NCBI GenBank assembly: GCA_049584655.1
Contig: JBAUYF010000038.1
Coordinates: forward strand, 5,524-69,523
Length of the DNA stretch: 64,000 bases
Reading direction: 5' to 3'
DNA from: Thermoplasmata archaeon
Lineage (GTDB): Archaea > Thermoplasmatota > Thermoplasmata > Lutacidiplasmatales > UBA184
Positions 10,151-60,888 of this stretch are shown here, one piece after another. Every line of letters starts with the position of its first letter. Within the stretch, counting starts at the first letter, position 1. Position numbers and translations under genes: made by a program. The notes beneath the pieces were generated by a model. It did not search any database, was not told where the DNA came from, and worked only from the letters and a program-made list of their open reading frames with translations.

Positions 10151-10289
10151 GCACGGCCTGTTGGGGACTCGGGAAATTCGACGTGAGACGAGGCGACTTG
10201 GTACCGGCTTGGAAACCGCCGACGGTACCGGCCGGTCAATGATTCTCCACCCCTCTCCGGCCCCGATCAGGCGGGATGGCCCTGGGTCC

Positions 10290-10326
10290 AATGATTATAT
10301 ATTCCTTAAATACTTTAAATAGGAAT
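10290..10326 (+). promoter_or_regulatory. AT-rich archaeal promoter with TATA-like boxes upstream of tbp
   Basis: ATTATATATT at 10294-10303 and TTTAAATAGG at 10315-10324 sit immediately upstream of the ATG at 10327. The spacing fits a leaderless or short-leader archaeal transcript. Confidence 0.5.
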
Positions 10327-10950: not shown

Positions 10951-11092
10951 AGCCTCTGCGCCCCGGGCATCGGTCCCGCCTAGCACCGCGGCGTACCGTC
11001 AGCGACCGCCTTAGATCCGGGGGGTCGCGTAAGAGATATCCGACTTTTCGGCTACCCAATTCTCCCATTCCTATCCGACGTCAGGCGATCTC

Positions 11093-11602: not shown

Positions 11603-11630
11603 TCGCCGTTGCGCGAAATGCACCTCCTGA

Positions 11631-12203
11631 GTGCATCGTTCTATCGGCCGACTGGAGCCACGTGTTGGCAAGTTTCGATCGTGTACACAGTTAGCCGTGA
11701 ATATTCTGGCGCAGCCTGGCGAGCGAGCCGGTCCACTCTCGCCTCTCGAACTTTATCAGGACCCGGGATTTGTGCCTCGTATGACCGCGACGGAGGAGAG
11801 GCCCATTTGGGTCGGTTCCATTGTCGTCGATTGTACCAACCTGGAGCAAATGATCCGGTTCTGGAGCGAGGCGCTTCACTATGTCCCGAGGGGTCCCGTT
11901 CGACCCGATGGCGTCATACTCCAGGACCCGAAAGGTATCGGACCGAATCTAAACCTGAGTTTGTCGAATGAGGGCCCGCTCGCAGAATATCGACTCCATT
12001 TGGACCTCTATGTCAAGGATCCCCTCGCCGAGCAGGAACGGCTCCTGCAACTCGGCGCCACGATCAATTTCCCGGCTCAGAAGGGGAAAGATTTCATCAC
12101 CTTAGCTGACCCGGACGGGAATCTGTTCTGTCTAATCGATATTGATTGGCCGAAGGATCGGAACTACTGGGGGGACGAGTGGGAGTTTGGGCGACGGGAT
12201 TGA
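11631..12203 (+). CDS. VOC family protein (glyoxalase / bleomycin resistance / dioxygenase fold)
   Basis: IVVDCTNLEQMIRFWSEAL...HLDLYV...FITLADPDGNLFCLID. The true start may be the internal ATG near 11781 (MTATEERPIW). Confidence 0.65.
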   Translation: MHRSIGRLEPRVGKFRSCTQLAVNILAQPGERAGPLSPLELYQDPGFVPRMTATEERPIWVGSIVVDCTNLEQMIRFWSEALHYVPRGPVRPDGVILQDPKGIGPNLNLSLSNEGPLAEYRLHLDLYVKDPLAEQERLLQLGATINFPAQKGKDFITLADPDGNLFCLIDIDWPKDRNYWGDEWEFGRRD

Positions 12204-44295: not shown

Positions 44296-45816
44296 GTGGA
44301 GCGGGCGCTGGTGGTGGTAGACGTGACCGACCCCGCCCGATGGTTGAGCTACCCGGATGCTCCACGCATTGTACACCCACCCCCCGGCCCGCGATCGAAA
44401 GCGCTGCTCGCCCGCCAATCCGAATGGGAGACCGAGGCCGTCACCTATCCGCGGAATTTTCCGATCGCGATTCAAGCGGCTCAAGGGGCCACGGTCGAGG
44501 ATGCGGACGGCAACCGCTTCATCGATTGGATGAGCGGTATCTCGGTCCTCAACCTGGGGCACCGCCACCCGCGATTGACCAAGGCGCTCGAGACCCAGGC
44601 GGCTCGGGTCTGGCACGCCCTCGAGCTGCCGACCGAGGCCCGTGTGGCCTTCCTCGAGGAGCTCCGAGGCGCGTTGCCCGGACGTTTGCGCAACCACGCG
44701 CGCGTCTTGTTCACAGTCACGGGCGGCGACGCCATTGAGACCGCGGTCAATCTGGCAGATTACGTGCAGCATCGGACCGGGACCGTCGCCTTCTCGGGGG
44801 CGTATCACGGCGTCCACGGGGGCGCTGCGAATCTCACCAGTGGGAAACGGTTCCATCAGACGACCTCGTTCCACGGAGGGTCCATTGTCCGGGTACCGTA
44901 CCCCGACCCGTATCGACCGCTCCTGGATTCGGACGACACGACCGCGGGAACCCTACGGTACTTGGAACACCTCATCTCGGACCCGTACTCCGGCGTCGAC
45001 AGCATCTCTTCGGTGTTGGTCGAGCCGATTCTCGGTGAGGGAGGCTACGTGATCCCGCCGCCTGATTTCCTCCCGGCCTTGCGTGAGTTTTGCGACCGCC
45101 ACAACCTGCTCCTGATCTTCGACGAGGTGCAAACCGGCCTGGGCCGGACGGGGAAGATGTGGGCGGCCGAGCATTCCGGCGTGACGCCCGACATCCTGTG
45201 CGTGGCGAAGTCGATCGGCGGTGGGCTTCCCCTCTCCCTCGTCGCGTATCGAGACGACCTTCCCGTCCAACTACCGGTCGGCTTTCACTTGGGAACTTTC
45301 CGCGCCAATCCCCTCGCCCTCGCCGTGGGGACCGAGGTACTGCGGACCCTGCGCGAGGAGGATTGGATCCCCCGGGTCGCCCGACGGGGCGCCCAATTGC
45401 TGGACCAATTCCGAGAGATCCAACGGCGACATCCTACCATCGGGGACGTGCGCGGACAGGGGTTCATGATCGGTCTCGAATTCGTCCACGACCATCGGAA
45501 GCGCCTGCCGTGGGGGGATCGCGCGAAGGCGATGCGGCACGAACTGTTCGTGCGGGGCGTCCTGATGCATACGTGCGGCCCGTTCGATCAGACGCTTCGG
45601 TTCATGGCGCCCCTCGTCATCGAAGATGAGTTGCTCGAGCGAGGTCTCGCAGCGTTCGAAGAATCGGTGGCTTCGCTGGATGGAGTTCCCTCGGTCGGCG
45701 CCCGGCATCGCCCGTCCCCCGCGACGATTCCGGGACCGGAACCTTACACCTCCCGGCTGCCGGCCCCTGTTCACCCGATCCCGGCGCCCATTCCGCCGGG
45801 CCGGACGCTACCGTAG
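44296..45816 (+). CDS. Class III aminotransferase (4-aminobutyrate / omega-amino acid aminotransferase-like)
   Basis: PLP lysine in ILCVAKSIGGGLPLS, DEVQTGLGRTG and GGYVIPPPDFL. Pro-rich C-terminal tail. Confidence 0.85.
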   Translation: MERALVVVDVTDPARWLSYPDAPRIVHPPPGPRSKALLARQSEWETEAVTYPRNFPIAIQAAQGATVEDADGNRFIDWMSGISVLNLGHRHPRLTKALETQAARVWHALELPTEARVAFLEELRGALPGRLRNHARVLFTVTGGDAIETAVNLADYVQHRTGTVAFSGAYHGVHGGAANLTSGKRFHQTTSFHGGSIVRVPYPDPYRPLLDSDDTTAGTLRYLEHLISDPYSGVDSISSVLVEPILGEGGYVIPPPDFLPALREFCDRHNLLLIFDEVQTGLGRTGKMWAAEHSGVTPDILCVAKSIGGGLPLSLVAYRDDLPVQLPVGFHLGTFRANPLALAVGTEVLRTLREEDWIPRVARRGAQLLDQFREIQRRHPTIGDVRGQGFMIGLEFVHDHRKRLPWGDRAKAMRHELFVRGVLMHTCGPFDQTLRFMAPLVIEDELLERGLAAFEESVASLDGVPSVGARHRPSPATIPGPEPYTSRLPAPVHPIPAPIPPGRTLP

Positions 45817-45839
45817 GTGGGACTTGTGTTCCGACCGCA

Positions 45840-47324
45840 TTAGGGTGCGTAGTTGACCGTGATCAACTTGACCTCGGTCATCTCTTCCATCGCATAGCGA
45901 ACGCCCTCGCGTCCGAGCCCGCTTTCCTTGATCCCCCCGAAGGGGAGAGCATCCCAGCGAAGGTTCGTGGGATCGTTCAAATGAACGGAACCCGCTCGGA
46001 TGCGTTTGGCGAGGCCGAAGGCGCGCTTCAAGTCGTTCGTGTAGACGGTCGCTTGGAGCCCGTACGGAGTTCCATTGGCGATCCGGATCGCCTCATCGTC
46101 GTCCCGGAACCGTAGAATCGGAGCGATCGGGCCGAACGGCTCCTCGCGGGCAACCTTCGCTTCGGGCGGAACTCGATCGATCACGGTGGGTGCGAAGAAG
46201 TTTCCCTCCCCAGGCTCACCGAGCCGCTCCCCGCCGGCAAGGATCGAGGCGTTGCGGTCGCGGGCATCCTGAACGAAACCATCGAGACGGTCGAGAGCGG
46301 CTTCGTCGATCAACGGACCGACCTGGGTGCTCTCTTCGAGCGCGGGGCCCACTTTGAGTCGGCGTACACCTTCGACCAACGCACGAGTGAACGGCTCCGC
46401 GATTCCATCTGCGACCAGCAACCGCTTGGACGCAGTGCAAACCTGACCTGAATATCCGAATACGCCACGGATGGCGGCCGGAACCACGGTCGCGAGGGGG
46501 GCGTCCTCGAGAATCAGAAAAGGGTCCATCCCCCCCATTTCGAGAATGGTTCGCTTCGCGTGGCGGCCGGCTTTCTCGGCGATCCCCTTTCCGACCTCGG
46601 TGGAACCGGTGAATGTCACGAGTCGGGTCTTCGGGTGCTCGACGAGGGCATCGCCAACCGAGCGCCCCGGCCCGATGACGACGTTGAGGACGCCCGCAGG
46701 AATGCCGGCGGCCTCCGCATGGTGCGCCAGCCGCAGGGCGGTGAAAGGTGCGGCGCTGGTGGGTTTGATGACCACCGGATTTCCCGCGGCGAGCGCGGGC
46801 GCCACCTTGTGAGTCAGCAGATTCAGCGGGAAGTTGAACGGACTGATCGCGACCACGACTCCGATCGGGTCCCGAGTGGTAAACAGAAAGCGCCGCTCGT
46901 TGCCGACGGGGTAAGGATACGCGTCCGCCGGGAAACTCTCCCCGGTCAAGTGTCGGATCTCCTCGGCGGCGAGCCGGAACACGCCAACGGCGCGCTCCAC
47001 CTCGGTCCGACTCTCGACGATCGGTTTGCCGACTTCGGAGGCGATCAGACGCGCCATGACCTCGGAGTCGGCAGCTAGTCGACCCGCGATTGCTTGCAAG
47101 AGCCGGGCTCGCTCATGCCCGCTGGTCGACCCCCAGCGATCTTCGACGCCGGCGGCCGCGTCGACCGCCGCTGCCGCGTCCGACGCATCGGCCAGCGCGA
47201 CCTCCCCGAGGATCTTCCCAGTCGACGGGTTCCGCAGCGGCTGATAGAGTCCCGTAGAGGGAGGCCGCCAGCTTCCCCCGATAAACAGGGAAGCCCGGCC
47301 ATCGGCCGGAATTCCTTCGAGCAT
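45840..47324 (-). CDS. NAD(P)+-dependent aldehyde dehydrogenase
   Basis: 494 aa. Catalytic Cys in GQVCTA and the ELGG motif. Confidence 0.9.
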   Translation of the reverse strand: MLEGIPADGRASLFIGGSWRPPSTGLYQPLRNPSTGKILGEVALADASDAAAAVDAAAGVEDRWGSTSGHERARLLQAIAGRLAADSEVMARLIASEVGKPIVESRTEVERAVGVFRLAAEEIRHLTGESFPADAYPYPVGNERRFLFTTRDPIGVVVAISPFNFPLNLLTHKVAPALAAGNPVVIKPTSAAPFTALRLAHHAEAAGIPAGVLNVVIGPGRSVGDALVEHPKTRLVTFTGSTEVGKGIAEKAGRHAKRTILEMGGMDPFLILEDAPLATVVPAAIRGVFGYSGQVCTASKRLLVADGIAEPFTRALVEGVRRLKVGPALEESTQVGPLIDEAALDRLDGFVQDARDRNASILAGGERLGEPGEGNFFAPTVIDRVPPEAKVAREEPFGPIAPILRFRDDDEAIRIANGTPYGLQATVYTNDLKRAFGLAKRIRAGSVHLNDPTNLRWDALPFGGIKESGLGREGVRYAMEEMTEVKLITVNYAP

Positions 47325-47339
47325 CGGCGTTGCGCCCCT

Positions 47340-48833
47340 CTACGATGGGTCGCCGTAGACCGTGTAGTGCCAACCTTTGCGGGCGAGCCCCGTTAGATCG
47401 ACGTAGATGTTCTTGACGACGGTGTAGTCCAATAGCGAATCGGTACCGAGGTCTTTGCCGAATCCGGATTGCTTGAATCCCCCGTGCGGCGTCTCGGAGC
47501 CGATCGGCAGGTGGTCGTTGATCCACACGTCACCGAAGCGCAGCGTATTGGCCGCTTTGAGGGCAGTCTGAACGTCCTTGGTCCAGACGCTCCCCGCCAG
47601 TCCATACTCCACCCCGTTCGCGATCTCCATCGCTTCATCGAACTTTTCGAACTCGATCACGTCGAGGACCGGCCCGAAGATCTCCTTCTGAGCGATCGCC
47701 ATATCCGGCGCCACCTCGTCGAAGACGGTCGGGGCGACGAAGGCCCCCTGCTTGCGCTTGGGTCCTCCGTCCGTTCCTCCCGTTTTGAGCTTCGCTCCCT
47801 CGCGTTTACCCGTGGTCACGAAGTCGAGCACTTTCTTCTGGTGGGTCTTGTGCACGAGCGGCCCGAGGTCGGTCTTACGGCTCATCGGATCTCCGATCCG
47901 GATCGTTTGAACGCGCTCCACCAAGTGCTTGACGAACTTGTCCCGGATCGAACGGTGCAGGATCAGTCGGGTGGCCGCCGTGCAATCCTGGCCCCCGTTC
48001 ACGTAACCTCCCACGATAGCCCCCTCGACTGCGGCGGCCAAGTCGGCCTCCGGAAAGACGACAAAGGGAGCCTTGCCGCCGAGCTCCAACTGAACGCGCT
48101 TTACGGTCTGGCTCGCGGCCTCCATGATCTTCTTGCCCGTCGCCGTGTCACCAGTCAACGACACCATGTCGACCTTGGGCGAGCGTGTGATCTCATCGCC
48201 AACTTCGCCGCCGGGTCCGGTCACGATGTTGAGGGCGCCGGGGGGTAGGCCCGCGTCGAGGAATGCCTTGCCCAGCTCGAGGGTCGAAAGCGGGGTCCAA
48301 CTCGCGGGCTTGAGCACGACGGTGTTGCCCGTCACAAGAGCGGGGCCCACCTTCCAGACGGCCATCATGAAGGGATAGTTCCAGGGCGTGATCGATCCCA
48401 CGACCCCGACCGGCTCTCGACGAAAGATCGTGGTGCCATCGCCGAGATATTCCGCGGGACTCTTCGCGTCCATCGTTCGGCCGGCCCCGGCGTAGAAAAT
48501 CAGATTGTCGATGGAACCGGGCAGGTCCACGTCCGCGGCTTGCTTGATCGTCTTGCCCTGATTCCGACTCTCGAGTTCCGCAATCGCAGCGAGGCGCTCT
48601 TGCAGCAATTGTGCGGTCTTGAGATAGACATCGCCGCGCGCCTTGGGCGTCATGCGCGGCCACGGACCGCGGTCGAACGCTTCGCGCGCCGCGTCGATCG
48701 CATTGCGGGCGTCCTCGCGATCGCCCAGAGGCACGGTCCCGATCTTACCGCCGTCGAACGGGCTGATCACGGACGAGGTCGCTTCGGAATTTGCCTCCAC
48801 CCATTCGCCTCGGATCAGCATCCGTGCCGCCAT
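47340..48833 (-). CDS. NAD(P)+-dependent aldehyde dehydrogenase (second, tandem)
   Basis: ELGGKAP and the CTAATR region. The start was moved to the ATG at 48833 (MAARMLIRGEW). The tracked ORF adds a 130-aa low-complexity extension that I reject. Confidence 0.85.
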   Translation of the reverse strand: MAARMLIRGEWVEANSEATSSVISPFDGGKIGTVPLGDREDARNAIDAAREAFDRGPWPRMTPKARGDVYLKTAQLLQERLAAIAELESRNQGKTIKQAADVDLPGSIDNLIFYAGAGRTMDAKSPAEYLGDGTTIFRREPVGVVGSITPWNYPFMMAVWKVGPALVTGNTVVLKPASWTPLSTLELGKAFLDAGLPPGALNIVTGPGGEVGDEITRSPKVDMVSLTGDTATGKKIMEAASQTVKRVQLELGGKAPFVVFPEADLAAAVEGAIVGGYVNGGQDCTAATRLILHRSIRDKFVKHLVERVQTIRIGDPMSRKTDLGPLVHKTHQKKVLDFVTTGKREGAKLKTGGTDGGPKRKQGAFVAPTVFDEVAPDMAIAQKEIFGPVLDVIEFEKFDEAMEIANGVEYGLAGSVWTKDVQTALKAANTLRFGDVWINDHLPIGSETPHGGFKQSGFGKDLGTDSLLDYTVVKNIYVDLTGLARKGWHYTVYGDPS

Positions 48834-48936
48834 GTTCGCACCCGGGTGAGCCGAGCCCGGGTGAGGTAAATATGTTGGCGATAGCCGACCGTCGGCCAAT
48901 GTGTCGTTGCCAACCGCGAGCCGGAGCGAGTGCGAC

Positions 48937-50109
48937 CTAAGCAACCGCGGCGGAGGTGCTTCCCTCGGCCGGAATCGGAGCCTTTTCGGGCTCGGGACCT
49001 TGCGCGAAGAGGGTCTCGGGCGCGATATCCGCGACTTCTTCTGCGCGGTGGCACGCAACGAGCGTAGAGGGATCGCCTGGACGAGGGCGGAGGAGGGGCT
49101 CCTCTGTCTTGCATCGGTCGATCGCGAACGGGCATCGAGCCGTGAATCGACATCCCGGGGGAGGGCGAACCAGCGTGGGAATCTCTCCGGTGATCCGGTA
49201 GCGGGCGTGACGACGGCGCACATCAGCGACCGGAAGGGCGGCGAGGAGCGCCTTGGTGTAGGGATGGGTGGGATGTTCGAGCAGCTGGTGGACCGGTCCG
49301 ACCTCGACGATCTTTCCTAGATACATCACCGCGACCCGATCGGCCACATAGCGCACGGCGGCGACGTTGTGGGTAATCAGTAGGTAGGCGAACCCGAACT
49401 CGCGCTGTAAGGTTACGAGGCGATTGAGGATCTGCGCTTGGACGGCGACATCCAGGGCGCTCGTCGGCTCGTCCAACACGATGAGCTTAGGTCGAACGGA
49501 GAGGGCGCGGGCCAGCGAAAGGCGTTGGCGACCGCCGCCCGAAAACTCGTGCGGGTACTGATCGAGGCAGTCCGGGGGTAGTCCGACCGTGGGCAAGACC
49601 TCCGATACGCGCGCACGGAGCTGACGCCGGGATAGGCGAGACCTCTTCGGCGGGCGTTCCGCCTTATGCCCGGACGAGCCCAACCGCTGTTTCATGCGCG
49701 CGGTCCAAGAGGGACGCGCCAGCTGCTCCTGCGCCCGGATCGGTTCGCTCACGATCTGCCAAACCTTGAGCCGTGGGTCGAGGGAGCCGACCGGATCCTG
49801 GAAAACGATCTGGACATTTCGTCGCCACTCGCGCAGCTTCCGACCGGAGAGCTCGCTCACGTCCCGCCCATCAAACAGAATCTCGCCGTCCGTGAGGTCG
49901 TGAAGTCGCGCGATCAGCCAGCCGAGGGTGGTTTTGCCCGAGCCGCTCTCCCCGATCAGTCCCACTGTCTCGCCGGCCTCGACCGTCAAAGAAACGTCAT
50001 CCAGTGCATGGATGGCCAGCGACTCCCGCCCCATGGCCGCATCAATAACCGATCGGGAGAGGGGAAAGTGCTTCACCGCATGTTTGACCTCGACCAGCGG
50101 TGGGCTCAT
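48937..50109 (-). CDS. Peptide/nickel-type ABC transporter ATP-binding protein (OppF/DppF-like)
   Basis: Walker A GESGSGKTT, signature FSGGGRQRL (LSGGQ) and Walker B LIVLDEPTSALD. It has the C-terminal oligopeptide-transporter domain. ATGA overlap with the upstream ATPase gene. Confidence 0.85.
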   Translation of the reverse strand: MSPPLVEVKHAVKHFPLSRSVIDAAMGRESLAIHALDDVSLTVEAGETVGLIGESGSGKTTLGWLIARLHDLTDGEILFDGRDVSELSGRKLREWRRNVQIVFQDPVGSLDPRLKVWQIVSEPIRAQEQLARPSWTARMKQRLGSSGHKAERPPKRSRLSRRQLRARVSEVLPTVGLPPDCLDQYPHEFSGGGRQRLSLARALSVRPKLIVLDEPTSALDVAVQAQILNRLVTLQREFGFAYLLITHNVAAVRYVADRVAVMYLGKIVEVGPVHQLLEHPTHPYTKALLAALPVADVRRRHARYRITGEIPTLVRPPPGCRFTARCPFAIDRCKTEEPLLRPRPGDPSTLVACHRAEEVADIAPETLFAQGPEPEKAPIPAEGSTSAAVA

Positions 50110-51320
50110 AGCTCCGGGACCCCCTCCGCAAAGTAGCACGCCGAGGCGTGCGTGCTGCCCGCCGGACGCCGGCGAAGGGGCTCCATCGGCGGACCTGGAT
50201 CCACCTTACACTTTTCCCGAGCCAGGACGCACCGAGGGGCGAAGTTGCACCCCGTCGGAAGTCGCGAGAGATTCGGAACCGTTCCCGCAAGGGAAGGGAG
50301 CGGGCCGTCTGACTTGTACCGGTTCGGGACCGACCGGAGTAGCGCCTTCGTGTAGGGGTGACCCGGGCTCTCGAACACCTCCGCGACAGGGCCGAATTCG
50401 ACGAGATGGCCGGCGTACATGACGCCGACATCGTCCGCGATCTCGGCGATCACGCCCAAGTCGTGGCTAATGAAGAGGATCGAAGTGTGGACCTCGTCGA
50501 TCAGTTCTTTCATCAACGTGAGCACTTGCGCCTGGATGGTCACGTCCAGCGCGCTGGTTGGCTCGTCGGCGACGAGGAGCTCGGGTTTTTCGGAAAGGGC
50601 CATCGCAATCATGATGCGCTGTCGCATCCCGCCCGACAGCTCGTGCGGATACAGCCGAAGGATCGTCTCGGGGTCGTTGATCCGGACCAACCGAAGATAT
50701 TCGAGCACTTCCTCCTTGATGCTCTCGGGCGGATCGGGGATCGTACGTCGTTTGGCGCCCTCGCTCGTGGCCGCTGCCGGTAGGAACGGATGGGCGAGGA
50801 TCTCCCCGGTAGGTGGGAGTTGCCTTCGCGAGTAATCGAATGCCTTGAGCTCAGGCCCGAGGTCAGGCATATTGCCGGCTTCCCGTCGGCGCCGGACTCG
50901 GACCGCCTCGGCCACTTGGTCGAGGATGCGGTAGGCCGGATTCAGCGAGTTCGTGGGCTCCTGGAAGATCATCCCGATTCCGGTACCCCGGACGTAGGGC
51001 ACCTTCCATTTGGGGATCGACAACAGGTCGACACCGCGAAACTCGATCTTGCCCGACAAGGTCTTCGCGGGCGGTTCGGGCAATAGACGCGGGATGGAGT
51101 GGCCGAGCGTGCTCTTTCCGCATCCGGTTTCCCCGACGATCCCAACCACTCGGCCGGGCGGGACTTCGAAGGAAACGTTGTCGAGCGCGCGAAACGTACC
51201 GGAACCGACCGTATACTGAACCGAGAGGCCCTCGACGCGCAGCGCCAGCTCGCTCCCGGGCCGGTCCGAAAGGAAGGAGGCCTGGGGAAGATCCGGCGCG
51301 GAAGCCGCCGGTGATTGCAC
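50106..51320 (-). CDS. Peptide/nickel-type ABC transporter ATP-binding protein (OppD/DppD-like)
   Basis: Walker A GETGCGKST, signature LSGGMRQRI and Walker B LLVADEPTSALD. Confidence 0.85.
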   Translation of the reverse strand: MQSPAASAPDLPQASFLSDRPGSELALRVEGLSVQYTVGSGTFRALDNVSFEVPPGRVVGIVGETGCGKSTLGHSIPRLLPEPPAKTLSGKIEFRGVDLLSIPKWKVPYVRGTGIGMIFQEPTNSLNPAYRILDQVAEAVRVRRRREAGNMPDLGPELKAFDYSRRQLPPTGEILAHPFLPAAATSEGAKRRTIPDPPESIKEEVLEYLRLVRINDPETILRLYPHELSGGMRQRIMIAMALSEKPELLVADEPTSALDVTIQAQVLTLMKELIDEVHTSILFISHDLGVIAEIADDVGVMYAGHLVEFGPVAEVFESPGHPYTKALLRSVPNRYKSDGPLPSLAGTVPNLSRLPTGCNFAPRCVLAREKCKVDPGPPMEPLRRRPAGSTHASACYFAEGVPEL

Positions 51321-51400
51321 GCCGCATTGAACGGTCCGCCCTACTAATAAGTGCCGAAATCGAGCATGGAGGCCCCCCGAGGCTCAGGAGCCCCGGAGCG

Positions 51401-53146
51401 TCAGGGAAGGTAGTCGCGGGGGAGGGTGCGAAGCTCAGTGAACACTTCGTGGAGGATGCCGATGAACTGCTCGACGTCCTTCTCCGTATGCGCGGTCGAG
51501 AACGTGATCCGCTCGTAGTTATCGGGATGGATGTACACCCCTCGATCGAGCAAGAGCTGGTGATTGCGCAGGAACAGATTCCAGTCGATTTGCAGCGATT
51601 CGCGGTAGTTGGAGATCTTTTTCCGACGCGTGAAGAAGAACTGGAGCATGCCGTTCACGGACTGGACCAGCACCGAGATTTTCGCATCCCGACCGGCGGA
51701 CTCGATCCCCCTCTCCATCTGTGTGGTCAATCGCCCGAACCGCTCGTAGAGCTCGTCTCCTCCACGCGCGAGGATCTTGAGATTCGCGAGGGCCACCGCC
51801 AGCGAGAGATTGTTCGCGAAGTAGGTGCCTCCGAAGGAGATACGGCCTGGAGAGATCGAGTCCATGTACTCGGCTTTACCGGAAACCGCAGAGATCGTGA
51901 CGCCCCCTCCCAAGGCTTTGGCCCAGCACGACAGGTCCGGTTGGACCTTGTAGAGCTGCTGTGCCCCTCCGGGAGCTACGCGGAATCCGGTGAACACTTC
52001 ATCGAAGATCAGCAAGAGTTCGTTCTCGTGCGCGATCTCTCGAAGTCGTTTCAAGTAATCCGGCGCGGGCGCAATGACGCCGGCGTTGGCCATGATCGGC
52101 TCCAGGATGACAGCGGCCAGCCGGTCCCGGTACCGTTTGACCATACGCTCGAACGCTGGGATCGAATTGTACGGAGCGACCATGACGTAGTCCGTCACCC
52201 CGGGGGGAATCCCCGCCGAGTTCGGAAGCGGACGCGGATACTCGTCCAGCCCGGCCACGATCGGCGGCGCCTCCGCGCTAATCAGGGCATAGTCGTGTTG
52301 TCCGTGGTAGTGACCTTCGAACTTGAGAATCGCATCTTTCCCAGTGACGGCCCGCGAGATGCGGATCGCATTCATCGTCGCGTCCGAGCCGTTCGAGCAG
52401 AAGGCGACCCGCTCCGAGTTGGGAACCAGCTTGTGGAACATCTTCGCGACTTCGATCTCGAGTTCGGTCGGCGCCGCAAAATGGAGTCCGAGCTCCGCGG
52501 CATGCTCGACCGCCTTGACCATCTCGGGGTGGGCATGCCCGTTGATAAGGCAGCCGTAAGCGAGATTGAAATCGAGGTACTCGTTGTCGTCGACATCCCA
52601 GATTCGAGCGCCCTTACCCCGCGCGATGAACGGGGGAACTGGGTCGTAGGAAGCCACTCGAATGAGCGAGCTCGAGGAGTTCGGAATGTACTTCTTGCCT
52701 TCCTCGAAGAGCTTCGCACTCTTCTTGAGTTTCGGTACCAGCCGTGCGATCGGGATGGGAAGCGGGATCACCTCCTCTTCGGCCGATTCCTTGGCTTCCT
52801 TCGCCTCTTTTGACTCCTTGGCTTCCTTGGAATCACGCGCCTCCTTAGCCTCCTTAGCCTCCTTGGCCTCGGTAGCGTCCTTCGATTCCTTGGAATCCCG
52901 TGGCTCCTTCTCTTTCTCCTTCTCTCTCTCTTTCTCTTTCTCTGACTCGCGCTTGTCGCGTTCCTCTGACGCGGGCGAGCGCGTGGTCGGGACGATCGCT
53001 ACCGAGGAGCTATCGGTTTTCTTGACCGCGCTGCCCTCGGCACTCAAACGGTCGGGGAAGGGAGAATCCGGGTAGGTTGAGGTCGGAGGTACCTCCAAAC
53101 CGAGCCTCGTCGGCCGATCCGGAGGGGCGGCGTCTCTCTCCGCCAT
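51401..53146 (-). CDS. Class III aminotransferase of the glutamate-1-semialdehyde aminomutase (HemL)-like subfamily with an approximately 120-aa K/E-rich N-terminal extension
   Basis: The core (...KLFEEGKKYIPNSSSSLIRVASYDPVPPFIARGKGARIWDVDDNEYLDF...GHYHGQ...PLP-Lys) matches GSA-AM-like transaminases. There is no ATG between the repeat region and the conserved core. The extension is in frame and free of stops. Confidence 0.7.
   Translation of the reverse strand: MAERDAAPPDRPTRLGLEVPPTSTYPDSPFPDRLSAEGSAVKKTDSSSVAIVPTTRSPASEERDKRESEKEKEREKEKEKEPRDSKESKDATEAKEAKEAKEARDSKEAKESKEAKEAKESAEEEVIPLPIPIARLVPKLKKSAKLFEEGKKYIPNSSSSLIRVASYDPVPPFIARGKGARIWDVDDNEYLDFNLAYGCLINGHAHPEMVKAVEHAAELGLHFAAPTELEIEVAKMFHKLVPNSERVAFCSNGSDATMNAIRISRAVTGKDAILKFEGHYHGQHDYALISAEAPPIVAGLDEYPRPLPNSAGIPPGVTDYVMVAPYNSIPAFERMVKRYRDRLAAVILEPIMANAGVIAPAPDYLKRLREIAHENELLLIFDEVFTGFRVAPGGAQQLYKVQPDLSCWAKALGGGVTISAVSGKAEYMDSISPGRISFGGTYFANNLSLAVALANLKILARGGDELYERFGRLTTQMERGIESAGRDAKISVLVQSVNGMLQFFFTRRKKISNYRESLQIDWNLFLRNHQLLLDRGVYIHPDNYERITFSTAHTEKDVEQFIGILHEVFTELRTLPRDYLP
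52795..52970 (-). repeat. Tandem low-complexity repeat (CTCCTT/AGCCTCCTT units on the plus strand), encoding KEKEREKEKEKE...EAKEAKEAKEARDSKEAKESKEAKEAKE
   Basis: Short purine-rich units are visibly repeated on the coding strand. Both strands stay open across the repeat. Confidence 0.6.
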
Positions 53147-53429
53147 AAAAACATAATCCTAAGTGGTTCGGGCAGCCGGAACGGCCTATATATATTTGGC
53201 GTGAGGGGAGAATGCGATTTTGTTCTCATATATAGTACACCAACGCGCAATCATTCGTAAGTAAATCGCGATATTTTCAGCATTATTGCCTACTAAAGCA
53301 CTAAAATATACCCAAAAGAACCCAAAACTGGCTGTCTACCTGACGGCTCTGCGCCGACTTCGCAGCGGAAGGTGACGCAACCGACGGCTCCCGCGGGGGG
53401 AGTCTGCGAGGTCGTCCCATAGGAGCTTC
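53147..53429. promoter_or_regulatory. AT-rich island (about 280 bp) inside an otherwise GC-rich operon, with multiple TATA-like boxes
   Basis: CCTATATATATTTGG (53185-53199), CTCATATATAGTAC (53227-53240), GCGATATTTT and GCGATTTTGT motifs, and CTAAAATATACCC. No ORF. Lies between the cupin gene and the hemL-like gene. Confidence 0.5.
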
Positions 53430-53762
53430 TTAGTCGCTAACTTGCTCCGCGGGCGCGAAGAAGACCAGGAGACGAAGTTCCTCCTCGATGGAGTGAAAAT
53501 GGTGCTCCCGGTGAGCTGGGACGTATAGGACCGAACCCATCGTCACAGCGCTATCCTCCGCGCCACATCGGAACCGGCCGCGGCCGGCGAGGACGTAATA
53601 GACCTCGTCCTCCGCGTGCGGGGATTGGGAGTCCGTCACCCCCGCGGGAAGTCGATAGACTCCCGCGCTCAACGTAGGAACCCGCAAGAATTCGAAGTAC
53701 CGATCCCGTTTTTGGTGCTGCGCATCGAACAGCTGGTGCAAGTCCCACCGCTCTGCCGTCAT
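53430..53762 (-). CDS. Cupin domain protein (111 aa)
   Basis: ...PHAEDEVYYVLAGRGRFRCGAED...GSVLYVPAHREHHFHS is a cupin two-motif signature. The ATG at 53762 was chosen. The tracked ORF extends into the amine oxidase gene. Confidence 0.6.
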   Translation of the reverse strand: MTAERWDLHQLFDAQHQKRDRYFEFLRVPTLSAGVYRLPAGVTDSQSPHAEDEVYYVLAGRGRFRCGAEDSAVTMGSVLYVPAHREHHFHSIEEELRLLVFFAPAEQVSD

Positions 53763-53818
53763 GGGGCGCCGATGCACCGTAGGGGGATGACTCCTTGGCC
53801 CGTCGCTTTCCCTTCGAA

Positions 53819-55177
53819 TTATTGGGCCGAGGAGGATTTGTTCGGGAAAGCCCGCAAAGCCTCCTCGGCAGCTCGATATCCAGTCTCGATCGCCCCATGC
53901 ACGGTGCTGGCTGCTCCGCTGGAATGCGTGGCTTCTCCGGCAAAGAAAACACGGCCGTCTTCGGGCACGGATAGATCTCGTCGGTCCTGGAGTCCCACCC
54001 CCGGGGGAAGATACGAGTAAGCCCCCACGGCAAATGGGTCGAAGGGCCACCGGTGGACGGCCGTCCCGAGGGCGGGACCCACGCGGCTCCCCGCGGGAAG
54101 GATCGACTCCAATTCCGCAATCGTCGCTTCCAATAGAGGGCTGTCTTCCCACGAGGCCCTGCGACGCGCCTCCCGGCCCACGGTGAAGGCCGTGTAGACC
54201 TCTTGGGCCTCGCCGAGCCCGACGCGGGGGCGCAGGAACGAGGAAGCGCCGTCCCCCCAGATCATCGAGAAGTCGCCCCATCGGTCCCGAAGCGGGTGGT
54301 CAGCAGTCCAGAAATGGACCGCGATAGCGTCGCCCATCGCGATCCGGTCGATCGCGCGCCGCTTCACCTCAGAGAGCGGCGGATCAAACGCGATCATTCC
54401 CGCTCGTAAGACTCCCAACGGCACAGTCACGATCACCGCGGTCGCGCCCAACTCGAAGGACTGCCCATCGGTCGGTCGCTCCCACCGTACGCGGATCGTC
54501 GGCTCCCGAAAATCGATGCGCCGCACGACCGCCCCGGTCTGGATCCATGGGCGAAGCGAATCGGCACGTCGGCGCATCAACTCGGAGTACCCTTCGCGCA
54601 ACTGGAAGTTCGTAAAGCCAAACTTCTCCGAGGCCGCGCGCTCCTCTTCAAGGGGTCCTCGCACTCCGATAGCGTCCGCATCCGCGGCGTACACATGGGC
54701 GAACATCAGGTCGACCAAAGATCGCGCGGCCACTCCCGTGCGGGCCTCAGTGAGCCAACTGGCCAGCGGCAGATCGGTCCCTGCGTACGCGTCCAGTCGG
54801 CGAGGAATGAGGATGCCACCCTCGAGGGTTGCCCGCGTGCCGAACACTGGATGGAAGGGGAACGCCATCCACGGCATTCGGGCAACCCTCCGACCGACGG
54901 CAAACCGGCCTTTCTGCATCAAGGGCAGCGGGCGCACCGAGAGGCCCGTCTCCTGAATCCAGGCGTGGGTCGCCACAGATCGGCCGTGCACCATCTGGGC
55001 TCCCAATTCGAGCGGGCACGACGGGCCACGGGAGTAATCCGTGAAGGCGCGCCCGCCGATCCGGTCGCGACCTTCGAGCACGCGAATACTCCGGCCCGCA
55101 CGCAACAGCCGCTCGGCGGCGGCAATCCCCGCGGCGCCGGCCCCGACGACGATCACGTCGTAGCGAAGTCGGTTCAT
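53819..55177 (-). CDS. Flavin-containing amine oxidase (polyamine/putrescine/monoamine oxidase family)
   Basis: N-terminal dinucleotide fold YDVIVVGAGAAGIAAAERLLRAGRSIRVLEGRDRIGGRA. 452 aa. ATGA overlap with the upstream permease gene. Confidence 0.85.
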   Translation of the reverse strand: MNRLRYDVIVVGAGAAGIAAAERLLRAGRSIRVLEGRDRIGGRAFTDYSRGPSCPLELGAQMVHGRSVATHAWIQETGLSVRPLPLMQKGRFAVGRRVARMPWMAFPFHPVFGTRATLEGGILIPRRLDAYAGTDLPLASWLTEARTGVAARSLVDLMFAHVYAADADAIGVRGPLEEERAASEKFGFTNFQLREGYSELMRRRADSLRPWIQTGAVVRRIDFREPTIRVRWERPTDGQSFELGATAVIVTVPLGVLRAGMIAFDPPLSEVKRRAIDRIAMGDAIAVHFWTADHPLRDRWGDFSMIWGDGASSFLRPRVGLGEAQEVYTAFTVGREARRRASWEDSPLLEATIAELESILPAGSRVGPALGTAVHRWPFDPFAVGAYSYLPPGVGLQDRRDLSVPEDGRVFFAGEATHSSGAASTVHGAIETGYRAAEEALRAFPNKSSSAQ

Positions 55178-56340
55178 TCCGGCGCAACATTTGGGATTGG
55201 CGTCGCAGGGGCTTCTTCCGGCAGCCGAGTATCAGTATCTGCGGCTGACAAAGCCCGTCGCGTCCGCGGGTCGAGCACGTCCCGCAACCCGTCGCCGAGG
55301 AGGCTGAAGGCGAGCACGCTGATGAAAATCGCGAGCCCGGGAGCCGCGATCGTCCAGGGGTACGTCAGGAGAAAACCGGCCGTCTGGTAGTACTGTACCA
55401 TCGACCCCCACTCGGGAACGGACGAGTTCGGGCCCACGCCGACGAACGAGATTGTCGAGAACGTGACGAGGACCGAGCCGATATCCAGGGTAAAGTACAC
55501 GACGATCGGCTCGACGATATTTCGGAGCACGTGCCGGGTCAGGATCCGCGTGTCACTGACGCCGGCGGCACGCGCCGCGACCACGTAGGGTTGGTACTTG
55601 ATCGCCAGGACCTCCCCGCGGACGAGCCGAACGTAGTACGGCCACCACGTCAGGAGGAGCGAAAGATAGCCGGCGCCTAGGCCCCGCCCGAAGATCGCTG
55701 CCAGCGCCAGCGCCAGTACGAGGCTCGGGAACGCGAGAAACACATCCGTAACGCGCAAGATGGTCGCGGAAAGGATGCGGCGCCAAGGGCCGGGTGAATC
55801 CCAGTATCCCGAGACCAAGCCTAATCCGCCACCGATCAACAGCGAGATTCCCGTAATCGAGATCCCGATCCCGAGGTCGAGCGGGGCCGCGTAGAGCGTC
55901 CGCGAGAAGATGTCGCGCCCGAGATTATCAGTCCCGAACCAGTGCTGCCAGGAGGGCGGCTGCGGGGCGGTCGTGGGGCTGATCTGGTTCGGCCCGTAGG
56001 GCAGGACCGAATACGACATCCGGAAGAGCTGCGGGAAGGCGACGGTATGACCGAAAAGGTGGAAGAGGACGATTGGTTGGGCAAAGAACCCCGTAAACGT
56101 CGGGACGACCCAGATGATGAATGCGCCGCCGGTGATGAGGACGACGAGAATGAACCCGACGAGCGACAGCACGTTGGCCCGGAGCACTTGGATGAGGCGG
56201 ACGACGCCTCGATACGCGCGATAGGACGTCGATCGGCGGGACCAACGCCGGGTAGGTGGAACTGGAGACGATTCCGCCGGCACCGGACTCGCAGCCTCAG
56301 ATTCCGAAATGGTGGGCGTGGGCGCGGAGTCGTCGCTCAT
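55174..56340 (-). CDS. Peptide/nickel-type ABC transporter permease (OppC/DppC-like)
   Basis: 388 aa with 6 TM helices and a BPD-transporter EAA-like loop. It directly follows the oppB-like gene with no gap. Confidence 0.85.
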   Translation of the reverse strand: MSDDSAPTPTISESEAASPVPAESSPVPPTRRWSRRSTSYRAYRGVVRLIQVLRANVLSLVGFILVVLITGGAFIIWVVPTFTGFFAQPIVLFHLFGHTVAFPQLFRMSYSVLPYGPNQISPTTAPQPPSWQHWFGTDNLGRDIFSRTLYAAPLDLGIGISITGISLLIGGGLGLVSGYWDSPGPWRRILSATILRVTDVFLAFPSLVLALALAAIFGRGLGAGYLSLLLTWWPYYVRLVRGEVLAIKYQPYVVAARAAGVSDTRILTRHVLRNIVEPIVVYFTLDIGSVLVTFSTISFVGVGPNSSVPEWGSMVQYYQTAGFLLTYPWTIAAPGLAIFISVLAFSLLGDGLRDVLDPRTRRALSAADTDTRLPEEAPATPIPNVAPE

Positions 56341-57363
56341 CTAGCGCCAATCCACCCGGGGATCGATGATCCCGTAGAGTATGTCGGCGATCAGATTCGC
56401 GACGACGACCGAAATGGAAAATACGATGACCACGCCAATGGTGCCGGCGAAATTGTAGTTGATGATCGCGTTGTAGGCATATTGACCGATCCCCGGCCAC
56501 GAGAAGATCTCCTCGACGACCACGGTCCCTGATAGCAGTCCGCTCGCGGTGAAACCGAGCACGGTTGTCGTGGTGATCAGCGAGTTTCGGAGGGCGTGTT
56601 TGAACAGCACGACCTCCTGCGAGAGGCCTTTCATCTTCGCGCTCTTCACGTACTCGAGCGGGAGGACCTCGAGCATCGAGGCGCGCGTCATGCGCGTGAT
56701 GATTCCGAGGTTCAGGAAGGCCAAGGCCGTCGCGGGGAGGATCAGATGTGTGATCGCATCCAAGGTGTACGGCAGGTTTCCCGCAAGGAGCGCGTCGAGG
56801 ACCGACATATGGGTCGGTTGAGGGAACGGAGGCGGATTGGTGGTGAAATCGCCGCTCGTCGGCAGCCCTAAAAACGGACCCACGGCGATCGCGAGTACGA
56901 TCGCCGCCAAATAGGTGGGCGCGGCCCAACCACTGAGGTAGAAGATGCGCACGAGGTGGTCGGGCCAGCGCCCCGCATAGTGCGCGGCCACCACCCCGAG
57001 TGTGATACCGAAAACGATCATCAGGAACAATGAAGCGAGAACGAGCTCGACCGTTTCGGGAAGCGCCTGAGCGATCGCGGGGAGGACGGGCCCCGTCCCG
57101 TTCGGGTCGACCCCCCAGTTTCCGCCGACGAGCTGAACGAGATACTTGTAAAACTGGACGTCGATCGGTTGATTCAAGCCGAAATAATTTCGACACGCGG
57201 CGAGCGCGTCGGGTTTCGCCCGTGGGATCCAGCGAGTGCAGGGGTCCGAAACTCCGATGTGGATGAAGATGAACGTGATCAGAATGGCCCCGATCACGAC
57301 GGGAATGAGCTCCGCGAACCGGATCGCGATAAAGACGGCCAGGTCGCGGAGGCTCCGTCCCAT
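56341..57363 (-). CDS. Peptide/nickel-type ABC transporter permease (OppB/DppB-like)
   Basis: 340 aa. Begins MGRSLRDLAVFIAIRFAELIPVVIGAILITFIFIH..., the typical OppB N-terminus. Confidence 0.85.
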   Translation of the reverse strand: MGRSLRDLAVFIAIRFAELIPVVIGAILITFIFIHIGVSDPCTRWIPRAKPDALAACRNYFGLNQPIDVQFYKYLVQLVGGNWGVDPNGTGPVLPAIAQALPETVELVLASLFLMIVFGITLGVVAAHYAGRWPDHLVRIFYLSGWAAPTYLAAIVLAIAVGPFLGLPTSGDFTTNPPPFPQPTHMSVLDALLAGNLPYTLDAITHLILPATALAFLNLGIITRMTRASMLEVLPLEYVKSAKMKGLSQEVVLFKHALRNSLITTTTVLGFTASGLLSGTVVVEEIFSWPGIGQYAYNAIINYNFAGTIGVVIVFSISVVVANLIADILYGIIDPRVDWR

Positions 57364-57500
57364 GAGGACCTACTCGACCTCCGAAGGAGGGGGGTCGGGG
57401 TTGGAGGACCCTACGGACCAACGCACGAGGCCCTCGCACCGCCGCCGTGGTAATAAATGCCGCGGCGAGGTACGCTTTCGACAGCCAATCGACTAACGCA

Positions 57501-57956
57501 TCATGGCGCCGGCGGGGGAGGTGGTGGCGGCTCCGACAGATGTTTCGTGAGCGAACTCGCGAACGCTTCCGCATCGCCCTGTACCCGACGCTTGAGGTAG
57601 CCGTCGATCACGACACGCAGGGGGCCGGCGCCCATCATGTCCAGCTTTAGTGTGAGGGCGGTCGTCTCGGTACTTTGGGGCACTAAATCGATCTGTCCCT
57701 CGATGGTCGCATCCGCCCCTCGCGCCGCGAACCGAACCCGACTCTCCGTAGCTTCGAGTAGTTCCCCTTGAAATTCGGTCCGACGGGTGAGCGGCCCAAG
57801 CCTGATCTCGACGAGCCAGGTGGCTGTGGTCGCGGTCTTCGGTACGACCCCTACGACCTGCGGAATGTTCGAGGCCAGGAACCTGGGATCCTTCAGTAGA
57901 TCCACGATCCGGCTCGGCGCCGCCGGCAGGGTGAACGTGATTGTGGAGGTGGGCAT
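57501..57956 (-). CDS. SRPBCC family protein (CoxG / polyketide-cyclase-like ligand-binding fold)
   Basis: 151 aa with a CoxG-like pattern. Poly-Pro C-terminal tail. Confidence 0.55.
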   Translation of the reverse strand: MPTSTITFTLPAAPSRIVDLLKDPRFLASNIPQVVGVVPKTATTATWLVEIRLGPLTRRTEFQGELLEATESRVRFAARGADATIEGQIDLVPQSTETTALTLKLDMMGAGPLRVVIDGYLKRRVQGDAEAFASSLTKHLSEPPPPPPPAP

Positions 57957-57971
57957 CCGATTGGTTCCTCG

Positions 57972-59534
57972 CTAGTTAGGGAGCGTTCGCGAAGGTCCGC
58001 GCCGGTCTTCCAAGATCACGTGAGCGGCGTTGTGACCCGGGGCGCCGATCACTCCTCCTCCGGGATGTGTAGCCGAACCGCACATGTAGAGACCAGGGAC
58101 TGGTGTTCGATAATTGGCCCAACCCGGAATAGGGCGCATGGAAAAGATCTGGTCGGGCGTAATGTCACCCTGATCGATGTTTCCGCCGGGCATGCCAAGA
58201 ATCCGCTCGATATCCGACGGCGTGACGACCTGCCAATGGCGGACGAGGGCTCGGATCCCGGGCGCATACCCTTCGAGAGTCGCAAGCACCGTCTCGGCCA
58301 CGGACTCGCGGGCATCGTCCCAGGTAAGCCCCGCCAACTGCGTTGGAGCAAATTGGACGAAGCAGGTCATCGTGTGCTTGCCGGGTGGGGCGGTGCCCGG
58401 GTCAGCCAGGCTCTGGAAGTACAGGTCGATGTACGGGGCGCGCGAGAAACGACCGTACTTCGCGTCGTCGTACGCGCGCTCGATGTATTCCATTGAGGGA
58501 GCGATATCGATCGCGCCCATCAGATACCCCGAGTTAGGAGCCGCCTCGAATCGAGGTAGCTTATCGAGCGCCGCATTGAACTTGAGACACGCCCCGCGCG
58601 CTTTCACGCGTCGGACTCGAGCCTCCAGGGTTTTATCGAGCGTATCCGGCGGGAGAAGTTTGAGCAGGGTCGTTTGAGTGTCCACGGAGGACACGACGAG
58701 ATCGGCCCGATGTACCGCGCCCTGCTCCGTCTCGACTCCGGTGGCTCGGCCGTTCGCGAGCAGTATTCGGCGCACGGCGGCGCCAGTCACGATCTCCGCC
58801 CCATGCTGTTGCGCCGAAGTGGCGATCGCCTGGGTGATGGCACCCATCCCGCCCGTCATTTGCCCCCAAACGCGTCGGTGACCTTCGATCGTGCCGATAT
58901 TGTGATGGCCGAGGATGTAGGCCGTTCCTGGCGTATACGGTCCGGCAAAAGTTCCGATAACGGCGGACGAGGAGAGAGCGCCCTTGAGTTCCGGAGACTC
59001 GAACCAGTCATCCAGGAAATCCCGCGCGCTTTTCAGGAAAAGATCCCGCAACATCGGTTCGGCTTCCCCGGGTGGGAGTGTTTGGAAGAAATCGGCGATC
59101 GGCATGGGCGGCGCCATCATGGCCGGTTCGATCACATCGAGAACGTGATCCCAGTACTCGACGTACTTGGGATAGACGCGGGCGTCCTTTTCCGAGAATT
59201 TCGCGATCTCCTTCTGCTCCTTCTCGTCATCGATCCAAAAGGCAAGGTACCGGCCGTCGGGCTGCGGGGCAAATCCCTGGGGATCGGACAGAATCGGTTG
59301 ATATCCATACCGCGTGAGCGCGAGATCCTGAATGATCTGAGGTCGGAGTAACCCACTGGCATACGCGAACGTGTTGATCCGGTATCCGGGCCACGGTTCT
59401 TCTGTGACGCACGCCCCTCCCACGATATCCCGGCGCTCGAGCACGAGCACGTGGAGTCCGGCTTTGGCTAGGTAGGCCGCGTTGATCAAACCGTTATGGC
59501 CGGCTCCGATCACGATGGCGTCGTAGTCGGCCAT
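57972..59534 (-). CDS. FAD/NAD(P)-dependent oxidoreductase of the phytoene-desaturase-related (CrtI-like, COG1233) family
   Basis: MADYDAIVIGAGHNGLINAAYLAKAGLHVLVLERRDIVGGACVTEE. 520 aa. Confidence 0.8.
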   Translation of the reverse strand: MADYDAIVIGAGHNGLINAAYLAKAGLHVLVLERRDIVGGACVTEEPWPGYRINTFAYASGLLRPQIIQDLALTRYGYQPILSDPQGFAPQPDGRYLAFWIDDEKEQKEIAKFSEKDARVYPKYVEYWDHVLDVIEPAMMAPPMPIADFFQTLPPGEAEPMLRDLFLKSARDFLDDWFESPELKGALSSSAVIGTFAGPYTPGTAYILGHHNIGTIEGHRRVWGQMTGGMGAITQAIATSAQQHGAEIVTGAAVRRILLANGRATGVETEQGAVHRADLVVSSVDTQTTLLKLLPPDTLDKTLEARVRRVKARGACLKFNAALDKLPRFEAAPNSGYLMGAIDIAPSMEYIERAYDDAKYGRFSRAPYIDLYFQSLADPGTAPPGKHTMTCFVQFAPTQLAGLTWDDARESVAETVLATLEGYAPGIRALVRHWQVVTPSDIERILGMPGGNIDQGDITPDQIFSMRPIPGWANYRTPVPGLYMCGSATHPGGGVIGAPGHNAAHVILEDRRGPSRTLPN

Positions 59535-59686
59535 TCAGGTCGGGGAGACGAGGCCGGTAATAAAGGCGAGAGGTGTGACGGATCTCCGATACGCGCGAGT
59601 GATTTCAATGGGATGTCGCGGCTAGCGACCCGAACCGTTATCCCCGTCCTCCGGTTCCTAAAAATTGTCGCATCCGCGAGGGGTCC

Positions 59687-60856: not shown

Positions 60857-60888
60857 AACCGCGGTCTCGCGTACATGGAACCTGCCCC

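Follow-up and report, generated by a model that had tools for sequence, protein, structure and literature searches.

A stretch of 64,000 nucleotides (nt) from a Thermoplasmata archaeon (assembly GCA_049584655.1, contig JBAUYF010000038.1, positions 5,524 to 69,523; here called the window) encodes on its reverse strand an aminotransferase whose open reading frame (ORF) extends far upstream of the conserved catalytic core, through a region of short, purine-rich tandem repeats. The question raised by this locus is whether that region is a genuine, highly charged N-terminal tail on a metabolic enzyme or an untranslated leader ahead of an enzyme that begins at a non-ATG codon close to its core, and the first-pass annotation of the sequence had left both options standing. 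Our analysis leaves very little doubt that the 5' 414 nt of the gene are translated from the ATG at 53146 and that the gene belongs to a tailed clade of Thermoplasmata in which all orthologs carry a clade-specific N-terminal region.

The ORF opens with an ATG at 53146-53144 and encodes a protein that matches Pfam Aminotran_3 (PF00202) across residues 167-542 (215 bits, against a gathering cut-off of 30.5), which places it in the class-III aminotransferases over the full domain. The NCBIfam GSAM models align from residues 140-142, and alignments with all solved GSAM structures begin at query residues 137-145, opposite the first few residues of those structures; since models and structures align only from there, the N-terminal addition amounts to about 138 residues. 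The description of the gene as a HemL-like aminotransferase with an N-terminal extension is thus borne out, with the core starting at about residue 139, and only the size of the extension, put at 120 residues in the first-pass annotation, required correction. Within the core, K410 in 'WAKALGGG' aligns with the lysine of 'LGKVIGGG' in the GSAM structure 3bs8, which we take to be the lysine that binds pyridoxal phosphate (PLP), and K410 is invariant in the 113 sequences aligned. The identical protein is found on three independent Logan metagenome assemblies. An antisense ORF of 500 residues (51311-52813, forward strand) overlaps nearly the whole aminotransferase gene; we regard it as open by chance, given the GC-rich DNA, and ORF length by itself therefore proves nothing in this DNA.

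We rejected a leader with an internal start on five lines of evidence, namely the homologous proteins, the open frames at orthologous loci, the DNA upstream of the gene, the pattern of substitutions and the loss of the one plausible internal start codon. The 120 best homologs are all 474-576 residues long and all tailed, with a median of about 90 residues before 'IARLVPKL'. At the tail-clade loci (Thermoplasmata genome loci with a core identity of at least 71%, contig-edge fragments being left out), the upstream frame is open for 74-132 codons before the same motif, with the exception of one locus where it is shifted (L020), and begins with an ATG (GTG in L014) followed by A-[E/D]-x-x-P-A-P. 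This frame opens exactly at the distal ATG in L005, L007, L012, L031, L038 and L039, and in L007, L009 and L010 the enzyme cannot be made without its tail because no ATG, GTG or TTG lies between the distal ATG and the core. Orthologs that start at a GTG or TTG near the core and lack the repeat were not seen; all carry a tail of the same type. At the shifted locus (L020:1505-3106, from the metagenome-assembled genome (MAG) SPRUCE_215) the tail, which begins MAELETAPTP, is out of the core frame through one frameshift just before 'PITIARLVP', which could stem from faulty assembly or mark a natural allele that is tail-less or a pseudogene.

In the window itself no in-frame ATG lies between M1 and the core, as had been noted before, and the complete list of in-frame alternative starts comprises a TTG at L17, a TTG at L34 and a GTG at V126 (52771-52769). 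The GTG is replaced by GCG in L004, which encodes a 94% identical protein, and is absent also from the orthologs P0001 and P0002; T, A or P occupies the position in other orthologs. An internal start at 52771 is thus ruled out by an unconserved codon and by orthologs without any internal start. The substitutions agree with translation of the whole frame: between the window and L004 they number 10/4/36 at codon positions 1/2/3 in the tail and 12/2/149 in the core, and the tail differs by exactly three indels (6, 9 and 9 nt), all within the repeat arrays, so that repeat copy number does vary among relatives. Other close pairs (L008, L010, L011) display 3-nt indels only and an excess of third-position substitutions, and wherever close pairs align well the indels fall in the repeats and have lengths divisible by 3 (the pair L016/L018, with its over-gapped and unreliable alignment, was ignored). 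As read from these alignments, the tail evolves as coding sequence under purifying selection that is weaker than in the core.

The DNA upstream of the gene points to the same start. When 33 orthologous loci were anchored on the distal ATG, conservation of the upstream DNA exceeded that of the tail itself, and 'GCCAATTATATATA' was kept at -54 to -41, at the same distance from the start, across these loci. A Shine-Dalgarno (SD)-like motif, AGGATGTG or GAGATG in the orthologs, follows at -14 to -8 and is succeeded by ATGGCGGA. In the window these elements fall in a 283-nt intergenic stretch in which GC content dips to 49%. By archaeal promoter geometry, the position of the TATA box about 45 nt upstream would place the transcript start some 15-20 nt before the ATG. 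Downstream of the TATA box and ahead of the start, the conserved block may be an operator or an initiation region, and the conservation of these upstream elements suggests that the cluster has a regulator or operator in common. In this promoter region (53147-53429 in the window, with equivalents in L004-L042) TTCT at -66 to -63 is also conserved, and in the window the CTCGGGGTCC(GAA) block forms an imperfect palindrome, GTTCCGG-CTG-CCCGAAC.

A regulatory or otherwise untranslated 5' leader, with translation from the GTG at 52771 and perhaps beside a long isoform, would be in keeping with the in-frame position of V126, with the GAGGAG that precedes it and reads AGGAGGTGATC across the codon, and with the frequency of long chance ORFs in GC-rich DNA, the antisense frame being an example. 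However, GAGGAG abuts the GTG with zero spacing, the residues PLPIPIARLVP right after V126 are strongly conserved as protein, and the putative promoter and SD-like motif are conserved upstream of the distal ATG; with the codon itself missing from several orthologs, some of which have no other start before the core, and with coding-type substitutions and indels in the tail, we regard such a leader as extremely unlikely, and the non-ATG start near KLFEEG that had been offered as one of two explanations is not sustained. It is hardly credible, too, that the purine-rich repeat acts on the mRNA, as AGGAGG-like sites that modulate ribosome traffic, with the peptide incidental. There is a strong strand skew across the repeat region, and the interval 52768-52870 has three copies of AAGGAGGCT and one of AGGAGGTGATC, but the codons for K and E (AAG, GAG) are purine-rich of necessity, orthologs reach the same composition through PEK, SEK, EPK and AKEA with much proline, and substitutions are concentrated at third positions. 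A charged N-terminal tail, the other option of the first-pass annotation, is accordingly upheld by orthologs that all carry the same type of tail and by the conserved promoter-like DNA upstream of the distal ATG.

The tail begins with the peptide (M)AERDAAPPDRPTR. The earlier description of it as built from a K/E-rich tandem repeat holds for residues 61-125, which are 60% K+E and contain three arrays of 6- and 9-nt units, but not for residues 1-60, which are Pro/Ser/Thr-rich and non-repetitive. The two period-9 arrays jointly cover residues 85-120 with K-E-A/S units. Scores of the three arrays in Tandem Repeats Finder (TRF) are 46-68, among the highest in the window, where just a single further array scores above 46. 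A six-frame scan gave a peak of 63% K+E over 30 residues in the tail, and no other window ORF of at least 100 residues, in any of the six frames, has a 30-residue stretch with at least 40% K+E. The only other tandem array scoring above 50 lies at 47143-47186 (period 18), in the N-terminal part of an aldehyde dehydrogenase gene (45840-47324), and encodes the Ala/Asp-rich 'ASDAAAAVDAAAGV'.

Relatives of the enzyme comprise more than 110 proteins from about 30 genomes of Thermoplasmata, with the tail kept at core identities of at least 71%, and the 120 best homologs all come from MAGs labelled 'Thermoplasmata archaeon'. Species-representative genomes at this level of identity include AcS5-58, AcS13-54 and UBA184, which belong to the order Lutacidiplasmatales (TMEG) of acid-soil archaea (PMC9287336), and the tail-bearing clade as a whole consists of Thermoplasmata MAGs mostly from soil and peat, Lutacidiplasmatales/TMEG members among them. 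We aligned 114 tails, which measure 66-131 residues up to the junction with the core and share a common order: a cap (its pattern present in 106 of the 114), a mid motif ('RL-x-AEGSAV' or AEG[S/G/T]-type variants, in 90), a Pro/Thr/Ala-rich PP-x-TPP stretch, a K/E(/P/A/S) spacer, an acidic patch and the junction 'PLPIPIARLVPKLKKS', in which P130, A134, R135, L136, P138 and S143 are invariant. Positional conservation of the spacer is essentially nil. Composition is kept, with a charged fraction of 0.17-0.48, 9-30% Pro and 7-23% hydrophobic residues, and net charge is negative in every tail (-3 to -10). Judged from these comparisons, selection acts on the presence of the tail and on its composition, length and net charge of -3 to -10, not on its sequence.

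Amplified units differ by lineage (KEA, SEK/PEK, EPKEKA, AKEA(A)), which indicates that the spacer expanded repeatedly and separately. Its length changes in frame, through units of 3, 6 and 9 nt that are added or dropped, and we infer replication slippage as the cause. A divergent copy at L032 (64-70% core identity) retains the layout 'VLTADDAG ... PLPPPPVSVLRLMP'. Archaeal outgroups (50-57% identity) have only 19-39 unrelated residues before the core, homologs from Terriglobia (about 41%) mostly start 3-8 residues before it, and the junction motif is absent from the outgroups; long tail and junction motif are therefore innovations of the clade. A hidden Markov model (HMM) of the tail searched against 9607 six-frame ORFs from the window and 83 loci recovered this aminotransferase family only, and a profile of the tail, run on 1.84 billion cluster representatives, gave nine matches, all N-terminal fragments of the same family; this library holds one representative per 50% cluster and would miss a tail present solely on non-representatives. 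A tail common to other enzymes was found by neither search, and our literature search returned no description of it.

Two copies of the gene, each with a tail, occur in some MAGs (L008/L011 in JOPF349, L010/L015 in SMAG_U14978). The SMAG_U14978 tails clearly differ (MADLPTAP..., 100 residues, and MAEPQPAP..., 91 residues), which points to paralogs or a mixture of strains. Spans of about 2.4 kb in tblastn, twice the length of the gene, raised the possibility of an intein in the Thermoplasmatales homologs L043, L044 and L047; it was discarded for L043 and L047 as their ORFs are ordinary (about 450 residues from the likely start, 472-476 codons between stops). A second class-III aminotransferase gene lies immediately downstream of both ORFs, and the 2.4-kb span probably joins this neighbouring paralog.

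Disorder of the tail is predicted by several measures. The AlphaFold2 (AF2) model used here was built from 113 sequences and has a mean predicted local distance difference test (pLDDT) score of 65.9, an earlier model from 30 sequences (mean 51.5) being too poor. Residues 1-58 are modelled without secondary structure at pLDDT 32-44, isolated helices span residues 59-78 and 92-116 (59-70), a helix at 131-153 (72-79) begins inside the junction motif, and many blocks of the core reach 80-96. In charge-hydropathy space the spacer falls well within the disordered region. Low pLDDT, charge-hydropathy position and divergence in sequence and length with composition kept are all hallmarks of an intrinsically disordered region (IDR), and these predictions lead us to regard most of the tail as disordered, its K/E segments being prone to form helices. 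None of the 114 tails contains a hydrophobic h-region of a Sec or Tat signal or a transmembrane segment: the longest hydrophobic run in any of them is 8 residues (median 3), and a twin-arginine-like pattern occurs in only three. With no signal-like segment, the enzyme is presumably cytoplasmic. The features of the gene and its upstream region are collected in Table 1.

Table 1. Positions of the aminotransferase gene, the parts of its tail and core, and upstream elements in the window.
Feature	Position	Strand	Basis or remark
Aminotransferase coding sequence, complete, 581 residues plus stop	51401..53146	-	GSAM-like class-III aminotransferase with N-terminal tail
Start codon and cap, residues 1-9 'MAERDAAPP' (family MAEREPAPP)	53120..53146	-	conservation
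Semi-conserved motif, residues 33-43 'RLSAEGSAVKK'	53018..53050	-	conservation island
K/E-rich polyampholyte spacer, hypervariable, residues 61-125	52772..52966	-	tandem arrays, composition
Period-6 array, residues 68-81, SEKEKEREKEKEKE	52904-52943		TRF
Period-9 array	52839-52893		TRF
Period-9 array	52787-52830		TRF
In-frame GTG (V126), only plausible internal start, rejected	52769..52771	-	not conserved
Junction motif 'PLPIPIARLVPKLKKS', residues 128-143, clade-specific, runs into first core helix	52718..52765	-	strong conservation
GSAM-like class-III catalytic core, residues 139-581	51404..52732	-	Pfam, NCBIfam, structure alignment
Candidate PLP-lysine K410	51917-51919	-	aligned to Lys of GSAM 3bs8
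B recognition element (BRE)/TATA-like element 'GCCAAATATATATA', putative promoter	53187..53200	-	-54 to -41 from ATG, conservation
Conserved block 'GTTCCGGCTGCCCGAAC' (consensus 'CTCGGGGTCC...'), between TATA box and start	53166..53182	-	column conservation
SD-like 'AGGAT' at -14 to -10	53156..53160	-	conservation; putative role

Which enzyme carries this tail is indicated by the family models and by gene context. The protein scores 405.9 bits against the HemL equivalog model TIGR00713, under its cut-off of 527.3, and just passes the GSAM subfamily model NF000818 (409.2, cut-off 398). Together with its place in an amine/peptide-uptake cluster, this makes 'HemL-like' an apt wording. No haem gene of the hemA, hemB, hemC or hemD type was found among the identified neighbours within about 6 kb at about 30 loci, where flanking ORFs were scanned in part; linkage to hem genes is not obligatory for HemL, and their absence is accordingly weak evidence. 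Since the gene heads an Opp/Dpp-type ATP-binding cassette (ABC) importer cluster in most loci, the enzyme is probably not a true HemL but a catabolic omega-aminotransferase tied to uptake of amine or peptide-like compounds.

In the window the genes that flank the aminotransferase gene encode, to one side, two Opp/Dpp-type ATPases (48937-51320) and two aldehyde dehydrogenases and, to the other, a cupin, a flavin amine oxidase and two permeases; another amine oxidase, two Rieske oxygenases and another class-III aminotransferase are encoded nearby. In about 22 other loci, among them L006, L009, L010 and L012 (genes at about positions 4400-12000 of these four and about 18 more), the order on one strand is HemL-like enzyme, permease, permease, ATPase, ATPase; the window arrangement is a rearranged version, since most relatives keep the aminotransferase directly before the importer genes. 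The upstream side was inspected in L006 and L012, and both have a saccharopine-dehydrogenase-like gene there; downstream in L006, in convergent orientation, lies a gene for a family-5 binding protein (SBP_bac_5). An aminotransferase that stands in for the substrate-binding protein as first gene of the Opp/Dpp operon was also considered, and discarded on account of the SBP_bac_5 gene in L006 and of a tail with no signal or hydrophobic segment. Short-tailed archaeal outgroups also adjoin Opp/Dpp and aldehyde dehydrogenase genes.

The window region 44296-62055 as a whole is a dense amine-catabolism island, with two each of class-III aminotransferases, aldehyde dehydrogenases and flavin amine oxidases, a cupin, two oxygenases of the Rieske/ring-hydroxylating type and an Opp/Dpp-type ABC importer. 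Genes for the oxidase, cupin and aminotransferase separate the permease genes of this importer from its ATPase genes, and none of the genes scanned here was recognised as coding for a binding protein. The OppD-like ATPase at 50106-51320 (reverse strand) is long (404 residues) and, by eye and without alignment to a reference OppD/DppD, seems to have an N-terminal Pro/Ser-rich stretch of about 25 residues and a charged internal insertion.

What might such a tail do? It could serve as a flexible, highly soluble and largely disordered tether, in which K/E segments may form isolated helices, and which would hold the conserved cap and mid motifs tens of residues from the catalytic dimer, free to dock on a partner. 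That the tail presents docking motifs to a partner in this way is our tentative preference, at a likelihood approaching but not exceeding an even chance. The most plausible partners would be products of the same cluster, because the gene is promoter-proximal and directly upstream of two permease and two ATPase genes in most loci, and docking would couple uptake of amine or peptide-like substrates to transamination. A rather speculative extension, which we consider doubtful, is that the tail is a recruitment device that docks the enzyme on the importer ATPases (OppD/F-type, cytoplasmic face) or on the neighbouring oxidase and dehydrogenase enzymes; if true, this would constitute an archaeal 'transport metabolon' channelling imported amine and reactive aldehyde products. 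If the tether model is right, the Pro/Ser-rich stretch and charged insertion of the OppD-like ATPase might be docking surfaces. An unrecognised archaeal protein compartment is a less likely docking target.

Several observations weigh against a docking tether, or against parts of the case built around it. The link to the transporter is one of gene order only, and it predates the long tail, being shared by outgroups with tails of 19-39 residues. Residues 1-60 are borderline on the charge-hydropathy plot, and both AF2 models are mediocre, which makes the low pLDDT of the tail weak evidence that it is disordered. Assignment of the promoter and the SD-like motif comes from conservation and consensus only, and the cap 'MAE...' could be partly kept for translation initiation at the DNA level (ATGGCGGA). 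Finally, should the frameshift in L020 be real, the enzyme may tolerate loss of the tail.

Two other accounts of a translated tail have to be set against docking. The tail may have no specific partner, being either a tolerated, slippage-prone appendage or a generic entropic bristle for solubility and against aggregation. This would suit a spacer with no conserved sequence, lengths from 66 to 131 residues and units that differ by lineage, as well as the possible loss of the tail reading frame in L020; mixed-charge K/E composition favours expanded, soluble chains and so fits a soluble bristle. Yet a neutral appendage should have been lost repeatedly, whereas every ortholog examined is tailed down to a core identity of about 71%, substitutions at codon positions 1 and 2 are suppressed in the tail, and three conserved islands persist in a freely drifting region whose charge is held at -3 to -10. 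We therefore judge the absence of a partner unlikely, if a serious contender. By analogy, the tail might instead be a cargo-loading or targeting domain for a protein compartment, as in the cysteine desulfurase (CyD) of Family 2 encapsulins, which has the same design of a fold-type-I PLP enzyme with a long, fast-evolving, disordered N-terminus (PMC8049743). The known cargo motifs LARLANEFFS and AASPYYFLDG (PMC8049743) were found in none of the 114 tails, however, and reports of Family 2 systems are confined to 14 bacterial phyla (PMC8346489). Among the conserved neighbours identified, which encode saccharopine-dehydrogenase-like proteins, permeases, ATPases, amine oxidases and aldehyde dehydrogenases, there was no HK97-fold encapsulin shell gene (flanking ORFs being partly scanned and whole genomes not searched). 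An encapsulin cargo domain was set aside on these grounds, and cargo loading in general strikes us as very unlikely.

The docking tether thus stays our tentative preference for a combination that is mildly surprising on an archaeal metabolic enzyme, namely a known enzyme fold with a lineage-specific IDR, and the view that such a tail is unusual for a metabolic enzyme can stand in this tempered form. As far as we know, prokaryotic metabolic enzymes seldom bear long disordered regions, and a role has been assigned to few of these. With more than 110 orthologs and tails of 66-131 residues, the family offers a natural series for studying IDR selection on composition as opposed to sequence, and a test case for tails that tether enzymes to transporters or partner enzymes. 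More immediately, the start codon of the gene is fixed at 53146, caution is called for with the HemL label in haem reconstructions of Lutacidiplasmatales, and a conserved amine/peptide-uptake cluster is flagged in uncultured acid-soil archaea.

Several known systems resemble the enzyme or its tail. GSAM (PDB 3bs8, 2gsa) shares the class-III fold, with best PDB E-values of 3e-88 to 1e-79 over residues 140-572, but the 138-residue N-terminal addition has no counterpart in the solved structures, 'MPGGVNSPVRA' of 3bs8 corresponds to 'IPNSSSSLIRV', the window enzyme has a 7-residue insertion relative to 3bs8, and its gene sits in a cluster of ABC-importer, amine-oxidase and aldehyde-dehydrogenase genes. 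The cysteine desulfurase of Family 2 encapsulins (SrpI/CyD) is likewise a PLP enzyme with a long disordered N-terminus, and this N-terminal domain targets it to the encapsulin (PMC8049743), disordered termini being general among Family 2 cargo (PMC8346489). In both proteins bulk composition is kept while sequence drifts, and a few short conserved motifs are embedded in each; the tail described here differs in being K/E-rich and repeat-built, in its archaeal host, and in having neither cargo motifs nor a shell gene seen nearby.

The tail also recalls charged segments of other proteins. AF2 renders residues 61-81 and 92-116, where E, K and R alternate in runs, as isolated helices, which recalls the ER/K single alpha-helix segments and 'KEKE' motifs known from eukaryotes. 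These runs are short, however, and interrupted by Pro, Ser, Asp and Thr, and because a rigid helix is hard to reconcile with the 9-30% Pro of orthologous spacers, what is conserved is probably composition and not helix. A further parallel is offered by TonB and TolA, in which K/E/P/A-rich spacers keep an interaction module at one terminus apart from the remainder of the chain; like the spacer here, they are charged, low in complexity and variable in length. TonB and TolA, however, are anchored in the membrane and cross the periplasm, and no hydrophobic segment occurs in the tail.

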